Positions 8,511 to 11,500 of a DNA stretch of 64,000 nucleotides are shown one piece after another (the stretch's first letter is position 1; each line of letters starts with the position of its first letter). The stretch lies in NCBI GenBank assembly GCA_963720565.1, contig CAVRFW010000012.1, positions 1 to 64,000 of the forward strand. The letters run 5' to 3'. A program made the position numbers. Source of the stretch: Candidatus Bathyarchaeota archaeon. Lineage in GTDB: Archaea > Thermoproteota > Bathyarchaeia > Bathyarchaeales > Bathycorpusculaceae.

Positions 8511-11500
8511 TAATCAACGCTTTCATGATTTAGTGAACCTGTCAAACACGGTCAATGTGCTAACGGCGCCACAAGAAGGACATTTATGCAAGAATCCGAA
8601 CCAACTTTTCCTGCAGTTGCTGCAGTATGTAACGGCCCGGTTGTACGTAAAAAATTCAAGCGCTTGATTTTGAACTAGGTGCACAGTCAAGGATAGCAGC
8701 GATTCAGGTTTGTGCTCAGTTTCACCCAAGTCAACTATGCTAAGACTTCCTCCAGTGCTGACACTTTTCAGTTTTCGCGCATCGTCTAAAGCGGCAGACG
8801 CAATTATCGGAAAATCACCGGATTGGAGGCGCATGTGCTTCGCGGTCGAATAAAAGGGTCTGTCTCGAGTTCCTGAAAACCTTATTCTAGCGACTCCATA
8901 CTTCTCAATATCCAATCGAACCAGTCGCTCAGACGCTTCATTGTTAGGAAGGATTGCAGGGTACAACCGTTTTCCATGTTTCCTGCCGAGTTTTTGTTTC
9001 AATACTATGATGGCTTGGATAATTTCCTCTGCAAATTTGCTGCCTTCTTCGGAAGTTGCATCCTTTTCACAAAAAGTCTCCACAGTTTCGCGGAATCCCG
9101 CCAGATTTATCAATCGAGAGCAGTTTTCAAGCCTAAGATACGTATCGTCATTTAGGCTCTGCATTAGAAATGGAAAGAAGGTTTTCGCATGTTGCCTAAG
9201 CACACCATACTTTATTCCGAGGGCGCGAGCTGCCATCTCGTATCTCTCCCGCAGAATCTCGAAGAATTTGTTCTTGTCTTTCTCGCTTTCAATGGCGATC
9301 CGGGGTAAATTAATCGTGACCGCTCCGAGGCAACCGGTTCTCAGAGTATCGATTTCCCAGTCTCCAGTTAGATCTGCCTCAAGCTTGCACCCTGAAGAAG
9401 AGAATACCGGATAACTGTCTCTCTGTAGTGCATTTACAAAGTATGGGGTTCCGGTCACCGTCGCCAAATTGTGAACTTTTAGAAGAACAGCTTTAGCATT
9501 TTCATTCTCTAACGCTTCGCTAGATATTTTGACAACAAGTTTAGGATTCAGCAGTGGTTTTAGAGTACTCTCCTCCAACAATACTTCGGATAAAAGTGAC
9601 GCTATCAAGAGGCTTTCATAAGCAAAATCTCCATATGTTCCGCATGTTTTTCCTTCTGGACCGACCGCTGCCTTATCTGCAATGAATCTCGGAATCGAAA
9701 GCTCTATTCCCAGAGTTGCGTCCGCGTGTTGACTTAGGCTTATTGTGAAGAGACGAAGATACTCCTTTATCCTTGGTGCATCTAATCCTCTGGCGAAAGG
9801 CGCGAGAAACACGTTGAAGTAATCACAGGTTTGGGTGGCATTGAGTTCTTTGCTCCCATGCAAAATGACGTTAAACGTGATTGATAATGCAGATTCAAAG
9901 CTCTTAGGATGTTCTATGGAGAGTTGAAGATTGTTTGCAGCGTTTATGCCGTTTTGGAAGAAGAATCGTAGATCGTGGATTACTTCGTCTGGCTTAAGCA
10001 CCCACGTACCGAGGCATTCTACATGGATGGCGCCTGAGACATGTGCATCGGCGATGTCTCTGGGGAAAATATTCAGGAGGGTATACTCGCCAAAAACTGT
10101 CTCTCCCGCAAATGCTATTTTGTCCATAGAGTCCTCCTCAACACTTTTCGCCTCCATCAAAACCGTTACCTCGTGGACGGGCATGCCAAGTCGCGTAAGC
10201 TTGTGTCTGTAGTCTTCAAGTCCCTTTTCAACCAGTATCCCGTTGACTACCTCTCTAACCAGCGGCGCGGTCAAATACTTGGTTTTAGATTTGAGCAAGC
10301 GTTTTTCAGCCTCTTTGGCTGCCTTCTGAGCTAATTCCGGCGGCATTTTTGCCTCCTTGATAAGCGAATTCGCAATTTTGTTGACATCAAATTCTTCAAG
10401 AGTATAATGTGATGTGCGGATTGTTAATCCGCGGGGTTTATCCGCCTTTTTTTCCACTCTATCCGCGACGTCGAGGACCATCTTGCCCAAATCAGTTAAA
10501 CTGTACTTCTTGGCTTCAGAGTCGGGTTCAATCAAGTCTGCCTTTAGTAGGAATTTTAGGTGATAGGCAAACCTTCCTGCGTCTCTACTTGGATTCATCT
10601 TAAGCGCGTTCATCAATTCGGTATAAGAAAGACCTCCTTTGTCAAAAAGGAGATTTAGGATTTGCAGTCTCAGAGGTGAAGAAACGGCCTTCAGAACTTT
10701 TACTCCGCGAACCCTCTGTGGAAGATTAACCATATCGCTATCCTGTCTCGATTGCGTGAATCTATTATTTTGAAGGCAGAGTTTAAACTTTAGCTATTCC
10801 ATTCTTGCAGCAACAACTCATTTATTAAGACAATATGACGCATTAGTTTATCTGTAATGGAGCTTCGTGATCATGAAAATTACCATAGTTCAGTTTCCCT
10901 TCGGAATTGTGGCTTTTGATGAAGACAAGAACGTCGTTGAAAAAGTCTTGTTTTCGAAGAAGACTCATCTAGCAGCTAAAAGCATTCTGAAAATTGAGTC
11001 AGGTAACATCTCTGACGTTACATCTTTGGTGTCAAAGCTCCAGAACCTTGGCTATGACGTTTTTGCTTTCGATACTGCAAACTTGGCCACTGAGGCAGAA
11101 AGAAAACTTAGCCTTAGTGTTAAAGTTCCAGCAGCTTCTGAAATAGAGGCTTTCCGCAATCTCGCAGAAAAAACTGCAATTGAGACCGGCTTTGCCGAAG
11201 ACTCGAAAGCGGTTGCGCTTTGGAATCGGAATGTCAGCATGGAAATAGCAAAGCTGAGGGTCAAAGGTGCAAGTGAAAAAAGAGACTTAGTTATAGCGCA
11301 AGCTATCCAAACACTCGACGATTTAGATAGAACAGTTAATTTGTTCATGGGTCGCCTTCGAGAATGGTATGGCGTACACTTTCCTGAACTCGATCGCCTT
11401 ATCGAAAAACATGAAACTTACGCTCGCCTCGTAATGAACTTAGGCTATAGGGAAGAATTTACTTCTGAAGCACTTGAAAAAGAGGGTATCCCAAAAGAAC

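Follow-up and report, generated by a model that had tools for sequence, protein, structure and literature searches.

A winged-helix/ATP-cone protein built on a catalytically dead class III ribonucleotide reductase is a probable regulator of archaeal reductase genes

Introduction

What does a class III ribonucleotide reductase (NrdD) do once its active site is lost and a DNA-binding domain is attached to it? The question is raised by a gene at 8523..10733 on the minus strand of the stretch analyzed here, 64,000 nt of a Candidatus Bathyarchaeota genome (hereafter, the window). Its 736-aa product, which we call the fusion, combines a winged helix-turn-helix (wHTH), an ATP cone, a predicted dead NrdD barrel and a zinc ribbon. 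The literature searched gave no answer as to how the majority of archaea adjust reductase expression to their dNTP pools; the regulator NrdR occurs in most bacteria and only some archaea, according to the available portion of PMC9110341. Sequence comparisons suggest that the fusion is probably an archaeal ATP/dATP-sensing repressor of reductase genes, and often of its own gene, and thus a functional analogue of NrdR. If this is true, an entire ribonucleotide reductase has been reused as the sensory part of the protein that regulates it.

Domain architecture and predicted structure

Pfam searches returned the domain order previously proposed for the protein (HTH 13–88, ATP cone 105–175, NRDD 210–732). 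The ArsR-like winged helix at aa 13–88 (10470..10697, minus strand), with the recognition helix RDAGRFAYHL, was matched by DUF7347 at 13–88 and by HTH_5 at 19–69 (27.2 bits, over the cut-off). The ATP cone at aa 105–175 (10209..10421, minus strand; PF03477, 28.8 bits, over the cut-off) is of the VRTS type found on neighboring archaeal NrdD. The barrel at aa 210–732 (8538..10106, minus strand), which evolves faster than active NrdD, was matched by NRDD (PF13597) with 217 bits. The NrdD model TIGR02487 scored 233 bits, under its cut-off of 326, and the ArsR metalloregulator model NF033788 (NCBIfam) reached 31.3 bits against a cut-off of 55. The NrdR model was absent among the NCBIfam matches, and the PHROGs matches were NrdD families only. 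Close homologues were labeled Candidatus Bathyarchaeota, with database names of either ArsR regulator or anaerobic reductase.

An AlphaFold2 model built on a 95-sequence alignment had a mean pLDDT of 90.2. The top Foldseek matches of this model were all class III reductases (E down to 5e-28; PDB 9d3x, 4coj, 8p2s, 1h78), and the fold of aa 6–100 was nearest to HlyU, CzrA and CadC (TM 0.72–0.78). Prediction of a complex of two copies of residues 5–200 with ATP scored 0.15, the mark being 0.42.

The genome contained two NRDD matches. The second was the intact nrdD on contig C9 (NRDD 653 bits, SMCCR and RVVGY present), where it sits in an nrdR-nrdD-nrdG-like cluster; the fusion is a separate gene, as had been claimed. 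One of the RNA runs contained 5% of the words. An RNA-derived contig of 212 nt spans 10537–10743 with six differing letters, which is no proof of transcription.

Loss of the reductase active site

In an alignment, we compared the catalytic positions of 81 fusions (the window protein and those of 80 loci) and of 20 active-type NrdD encoded at the same loci. One of the 81, from locus L090, probably has only the helix domain in common with the others. Further residue counts were taken from the 120 closest homologues and from 79 sequences of the same family. As described in the available parts of PMC9669993, the class III finger loop reads MGCR, MCCR, SCCR or QCCR/A, and the beta-A cysteine is 92.6% conserved. 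The HxHD motif binds the triphosphate of the substrate and the NxN flap is also a class III feature, according to the accessible text of PMC11226230.

Each of these features was degraded or missing in the fusions. The beta-A cysteine was present in 20/20 active NrdD vs. 0/81 fusions; its place in the window protein is taken by E250 (9984..9986, minus strand, by alignment to T4 NrdD). The second His of HxHD was found in 20/20 active enzymes and 4% of the 81 fusions, and the window protein retains a remnant, HVEC, that has lost it (10014..10025, minus strand). Asn of the NxN flap was present in 100% of the 20 active sequences vs. 5% of the 81 fusions. The radical Gly-Tyr motif occurred in 20/20 active NrdD and 0/81 fusions, with Gly alone at that column in 8/81, and R-[IV]-x-G-Y/F close to the C-terminus was found in none of the 81 distant, 120 closest or 79 same-family fusions. 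In the window protein the radical loop has been reduced to RFTKS (8526..8540, minus strand), with Lys at the radical Gly position, and the chain terminates as K735-S736-stop, one residue past that position. The loss of the glycyl-radical motif reported in the initial annotation is confirmed. The reported loss of the active-site cysteine pair requires a qualification: the finger-loop pair was absent from all 81, 120 and 79 sequences, and the window protein retains one finger-loop cysteine, C449, in the remnant SSSGCKL (9381..9401, minus strand). The C-terminal zinc site (C704-x2-C707 ... C718-x2-C721; 8571..8624, minus strand) is kept, as had been noted, with all four cysteines in 120/120 closest homologues and 65–67 of the 81 distant fusions. 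Judging from these alignments, the view that the barrel is a catalytically dead NrdD, a pseudoenzyme, holds.

Conservation, origin and distribution

Conservation of the fusion was highest in the helix domain and the cone, together with the linker that follows the cone. All 14 invariant columns among 95 sequences fell within residues 58–185; H58, Y77 and G83 were among them. The recognition helix was near-invariant, as noted earlier. Conserved cone residues among the 81 fusions were R106 (75/81), E113 (80/81), K/R119 (76/81) and R160 (76/81).

In a tree of 70 cores obtained by a quick tree search, the 38 fusions made up one side of a branch with an SH-aLRT of 99, and their end branches were much longer than those of active NrdD. 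From aa 105 onward, the fusion was 31% identical to the neighboring NrdD of a relative over 649 columns. The NrdD of its own genome was less close than this neighboring type, at 26% identity over 547 columns. The best explanation is a single origin of the fusion, in which an archaeal nrdD with an ATP cone was duplicated and an ArsR-like winged helix was acquired.

The N-terminal 200 residues had matches over most of their length in 104/151 genomes of the class, and the wHTH and cone were matched at E ≤ 1e-19 in 102/151 sampled genomes of the phylum (both hand counts). The protein had been described as conserved through most of Thermoproteota; this requires a qualification, since in four families of the phylum the fusion was found in 0/13, 0/5, 0/7 and 0/5 sampled genomes. 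Within the class, families f18, f15, f12 and f27 and a single f56 genome yielded no fusion. Absence was confirmed by a full-length profile in 10/10 genomes tried. We also considered split forms in fusion-less genomes and rejected them: the 600-aa NRDD matches inspected were active-type NrdD (CC, RVVGY), and the HTH matches were unrelated proteins. Orthologs had been reported for 37 of 41 genomes of the order; we counted by hand strong matches in 30/33 other genomes of the order, a different sample in which the exact counts were not reproduced. Look-alike clusters in a protein atlas were most frequent in Bathyarchaeota, Nitrososphaerota, Thermoproteota and Promethearchaeota, which we treat as a lead only.

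Gene neighborhood

The fusion gene abuts a pyrB-like carbamoyltransferase gene (7584..8513, plus strand) with a gap of 9 bp. The adjacency was noted in the initial annotation; the two genes lie tail-to-tail on opposite strands, so they are not co-transcribed. On the other side, a nop5-like gene (10867..12171, plus strand) diverges from the fusion gene at a distance of 133 bp and provides context only.

A common order in relatives was fusion, nrdD and convergent pyrB. The 20 loci of this neighborhood set were chosen for the second gene, nrdD, behind the fusion; a reductase-like gene directly behind it was found in 10 of 60 loci chosen for diversity. In the family of the window there was no nrdD behind the fusion, and the convergent pyrB came next in 76/80 rows. 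The earlier statement that a second NrdD gene lies directly behind therefore applies to other families, where this arrangement is common, and not to that of the window. Some fusions overlap the nrdD that directly follows. The fusion of family f32 groups into Nitrososphaerota clusters, and a class II nrdJ was directly behind it at 14/15 loci of that family.

A candidate operator in relatives

Motif runs on upstream regions turned up an element conserved across fusion promoters and, at nrdD promoters, one that is repeated. We trained a 16-bp palindrome model on 40 Bathyarchaeia fusion promoters from outside the family of the window, without any nrdD DNA. The consensus was GTyTAA-N4-TTArAC, present as one copy on the fusion's own promoter. 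It passed in 30/40 training promoters; fusion promoters not used for training passed in 4/32 and 0/15. The palindrome is rich in A and T, and the TATA box makes up half of one copy; at the fusion promoters of L095, L097 and L102 it was near-perfect yet lacked a TATA-like half, so it is not just a TATA echo.

At nrdD promoters, the palindrome occurred as a tandem pair 22 bp apart, with the second copy usually over BRE/TATA. The spacing was spotted by eye before the period scan. Across 36 nrdD upstream regions, the mean two-copy score was 10.0 at 22 bp and ranged from −1.1 to 3.6 for the remaining periods between 16 and 40, and the background score was flat near −2.5. When the period was left free, 19/36 regions chose 22, and 0/100 column-shuffled models reached the observed difference.

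With the period fixed, we then took as threshold the 95th percentile of 227 background promoters, which were matched in length and belonged to the same loci. The pair exceeded it in 27/36 fusion-bearing genomes (10/14 families) and in 1/13 fusion-less genomes (0/5 families; absence of the fusion checked by full profile in 9/13), the genomes compared being related and hence not independent. Of the nine misses, five had nrdD or a small preceding gene at most 40 bp from the end of the fusion gene, and thus probably share a promoter with it; one had only 107 nt upstream before the contig end, and three were f36 variants. The tandem pair was also found in families outside Bathyarchaeia and ahead of a cone-less nrdD. 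In family f4, the fusion's own promoter lacked the site while the nrdD pair was kept, so loss from the own promoter tells little. The nrdJ promoters of f32 passed in 3/14 cases and contained other palindromes. Five distant genomes supplied nine more reductase promoters, of which two or three scored highly and the rest mostly had no site.

Fusion-less genomes had no peak at 22 in their period profile. A shuffle test on 950-nt windows let 6/13 of these genomes pass at periods 21–23, a result inflated by AT-rich spacers within GC-richer coding DNA. Initial motif searches in fusion-less genomes and at f32 fusion promoters returned coding sequence.

Distribution of NrdR and the promoters of this genome

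Among 151 genomes of the class, NrdR was found only in the family of the window (15/15) and in the fusion-less family f18 (4/27). The distributions of fusion and NrdR are therefore near-complementary, and both proteins are present in this genome.

The operator was not detected in this genome: the 38-bp model ranked the nrdR-nrdD promoter 101 and the fusion's own promoter 558 of 1479. A probable TATA box with an upstream element, conserved in the family, lies ahead of the fusion gene (10781..10796, minus strand) at the position equivalent to that of the family operator, yet without an operator-level score. Across the family of the window, the operator passed in 3/27 nrdR promoters and 4/76 own promoters. 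A box within four mismatches of the NrdR consensus was present in 20/27 nrdR promoters. The best explanation is that another nrdD subtype, controlled by NrdR, took the place of nrdD in this family.

In the nrdR promoters of the family, an element immediately ahead of TATA is also conserved; it is in register with the two central half-sites. In a TATA-anchored half-site test, 5/26 and 12/26 lay above the 90th percentile of background. A model of this element ranked the nrdR promoter of the genome first and gave nothing else clear; orthology alone explains the first rank of a family-derived model. We regard the variant element upstream of the nrdR TATA box as a weak candidate for a target of this genome's fusion.

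Proposed mechanism and alternative explanations

The proposal that the protein is a nucleotide-sensing transcription factor gained from these results a palindrome common to its own and nrdD promoters, the near-complementary distribution of NrdR, and retention of the fusion where no other NrdD match exists. Most likely, the fusion represses reductase genes and its own gene. By analogy with NrdR and with the dATP-bound tetramers of an active NrdD, ATP or dATP on the cone would set the oligomer state. Two helix pairs would then occupy two sites two turns apart and exclude TFB and TBP. Activation from the upstream site rather than repression is possible.

Less probable, and on balance improbable, is a nucleotide-sensing transcription factor that controls other genes or a broader set of them (replication, cell cycle, nucleotide pools), with the palindrome bound by another protein or marking only part of the targets; a third factor could bind it. 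This would fit the family of the window, in which the protein is intact and conserved despite the undetected operator, nrdD stands under the NrdR-like boxes found at 20/27 promoters, and no tandem site was found; the weak sites of f32 would fit as well. Against it, the site tracks the fusion (27/36 vs. 1/13 genomes) and lies on the fusion's own promoter in 30/40 training promoters. The search for further targets was also negative: across the 1479 promoters of this genome, three operator models gave no coherent nucleotide regulon, the top promoters did not form a nucleotide-gene set, and a whole-genome tandem scan returned three weak matches only. Regulation of pyr genes was considered and rejected as gene order only, since the palindrome was above background in just 2/23 pyrB-family, 0/18 pyrI and 0/6 pyrH promoters; the link to pyrimidine genes suggested initially is not supported beyond their position.

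We think it highly improbable that the fusion serves active NrdD as a non-catalytic partner subunit, tuning or localizing the enzyme, with the wHTH tethering the enzyme or playing a secondary role. The gene is often directly before nrdD and sometimes overlaps it, the barrel fold appears intact in the structural model, and cone and core are nearest to the neighboring NrdD type. However, the fusion was the only NRDD match in 5/5 f32 genomes of 99% completeness and in genome G164, and G157 and G230 carried short fusions without any NRDD match, which argues against an obligatory NrdD partnership. Moreover, the partner has been swapped for another NrdD subtype in the family of the window and in place at L050, and the stretch aligned with the effector/dimer helices was poorly conserved (0.22–0.35 vs. 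0.66–0.76).

A sequence-independent DNA-binding or chromatin protein, with an oligomer state following nucleotide levels, is still harder to credit: it would account for the weak similarity to Sso10a chromatin proteins (E 0.015, far below the cut-off) and for retention where the operator was not detected, but not for the near-invariant recognition helix and the positionally fixed palindrome. An active or re-purposed enzyme that uses the leftover finger-loop cysteine with a radical provided in trans is barely conceivable. In its favor, C449 aligns with C290 of T4 NrdD, a single-cysteine enzyme, and databases often name the homologues reductase. Against it, the column is Cys in 70/120 closest, 16/79 same-family and 5/81 distant fusions and otherwise mostly L, I, V, F or S, and so behaves like a structural position. 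The fusions have also lost the second His of HxHD along with the radical Gly-Tyr, beta-A Cys and NxN flap, and their core branches are long.

Returning to the reading as an ATP/dATP-sensing repressor, a bolder extension of it is possible though rather doubtful. The class III allosteric switch itself may have become a gene switch, with a dATP-driven dimer-to-tetramer change setting two winged-helix pairs on the 22-bp sites. Such a change with dATP is documented for an active NrdD in the portion of PMC11226230 at hand. The family might then be the principal, hitherto unrecognized reductase repressor in Bathyarchaeia and in Nitrososphaerota-type and related archaea. Where the parent enzyme was lost, it would have been retained for control of class II nrdJ, and it might extend to Asgard archaea, one look-alike cluster being most frequent in Promethearchaeota.

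Comparison with known systems

Judged by its domains and motifs, the fusion is neither an NrdD, nor an NrdR, nor a curated ArsR member; each assignment fails a defining feature tested here. It resembles NrdR in the use of an ATP cone as sensor and in its predicted targets, which are reductase promoters and its own. The candidate sites of relatives, though not of the family of the window, have a counterpart in NrdR, for which the available text of PMC9110341 gives two 16-bp palindromes that lie close to the transcription start on the same face of the helix. The same text describes NrdR as a protein of ~150 aa with a DNA-binding zinc ribbon and boxes about three turns apart, whereas the fusion has 736 aa, a winged helix, a whole NrdD barrel and candidate sites 22 bp apart of unrelated sequence. 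With NrdD it shares the ATP cone, the ten-stranded barrel and the C-terminal zinc site. It differs in the extra wHTH, the score under the TIGR02487 cut-off, the broken HxHD and the lack of the radical Gly-Tyr, beta-A Cys, MGCR/MCCR/QCCR loop and NxN flap. The likeness to ArsR/SmtB proteins (HlyU, CzrA, CadC) lies in the fold of aa 6–100 and in the probable binding to an AT-rich inverted repeat; the fusion falls far under the NF033788 cut-off and, unlike them, carries a 640-aa nucleotide-binding module. NrtR offers a parallel in principle: its effector domain, derived from an enzyme, is joined to a DNA-binding domain, and the protein regulates the pathway to which that enzyme belongs. As far as the available part of PMC2330246 goes, it is bacterial and Nudix-related; its fold, ligand and pathway are other than those of the fusion, and homology is not expected.

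Novelty and annotation of homologues

We found no description of the fusion family in the literature, supplements, subscription papers and arCOG/RNRdb notes aside, and none in the available parts of PMC9669993, PMC4390871 and PMC6593220. The tandem candidate operator and the distribution pattern of NrdR are new here, and a concrete candidate operator makes the regulator reading testable. Homologues of the fusion are often named anaerobic ribonucleoside-triphosphate reductase. In the five near-complete genomes in which the fusion is the only NRDD match, class III activity would thereby be wrongly credited.

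Genes behind the fusion and their promoters

The gene directly behind the winged-helix/ATP-cone/NrdD fusion differed between relatives. In genome G153 it encoded a second degenerate NrdD (L089:3677-5584, minus strand), which kept the ATP cone, had its finger loop deleted and carried alanine at the radical glycine position; the fusion and the gene behind it are two dead NrdD-derived copies arranged in tandem. At locus L050, the gene behind the fusion (L050:2948-5056, minus strand) was an nrdD of the MCCR subtype with 67% identity to the NrdD of the source genome, and has taken the place of the earlier nrdD at this position. 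A strong candidate tandem site was still found upstream of this gene, as was the broken start of a glutaredoxin-like gene (compare L049). The nrdD reading frames of L128, L129, L131, and L293-L297 were 1102-2431 aa long with split NRDD matches, probably explained by inteins.

The class II nrdJ genes of family f32, which mostly lie directly behind the fusion, were preceded by conserved palindromes at a distance of 40-130 nt from their TATA region, on its upstream side (L053-L058, L145-L152). These were of the GTGTCAA-N5-TTGA and TATGAA-N-TTCATA types, unlike the candidate operator in shape.

The nrdR-nrdD-nrdG-like cluster of the source genome (L001:692-3959, contig C9) had an archaeal TATA box with NrdR-like boxes downstream of it, and NrdR was present in 15/15 genomes of the family. 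Here, a repressor of bacterial type is paired with an archaeal promoter.

Variant and duplicate fusions

In shortened fusions of 525-603 aa (L068-L071, L076-L078, L082-L085, L091), the zinc site was gone, together with a large part of the barrel. Most of them had a NAC-like gene as a neighbour, and a gene with a PUA domain was often found there too. Fusions of family f36 (L062-L065) lacked the finger-loop cysteine, with glycine still at the radical position and a complete C-terminal tail.

Two fusion copies were detected in G085 (contigs C11 and C13) and in G175 (C13:7043-7609 and C16:18700-19251). One G175 copy was far nearer the Bathyarchaeia type (61% versus 44%), pointing to transfer or mis-binning.

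Other genes in the window

The minus strand carried two adjacent genes, presumably DUF72-like, each apparently split over two frames (1105-2760), and an amidophosphoribosyltransferase-like ORF (3579-5195). The latter, a purine gene near apt-like and pyrB genes, had the N-terminus S-N-C-A and did not start near the usual cysteine. A gene that we take to be methylthioadenosine/purine phosphorylase-like (6584-7445, minus strand) appeared as two overlapping ORFs in different frames, possibly owing to a frameshift or assembly error.
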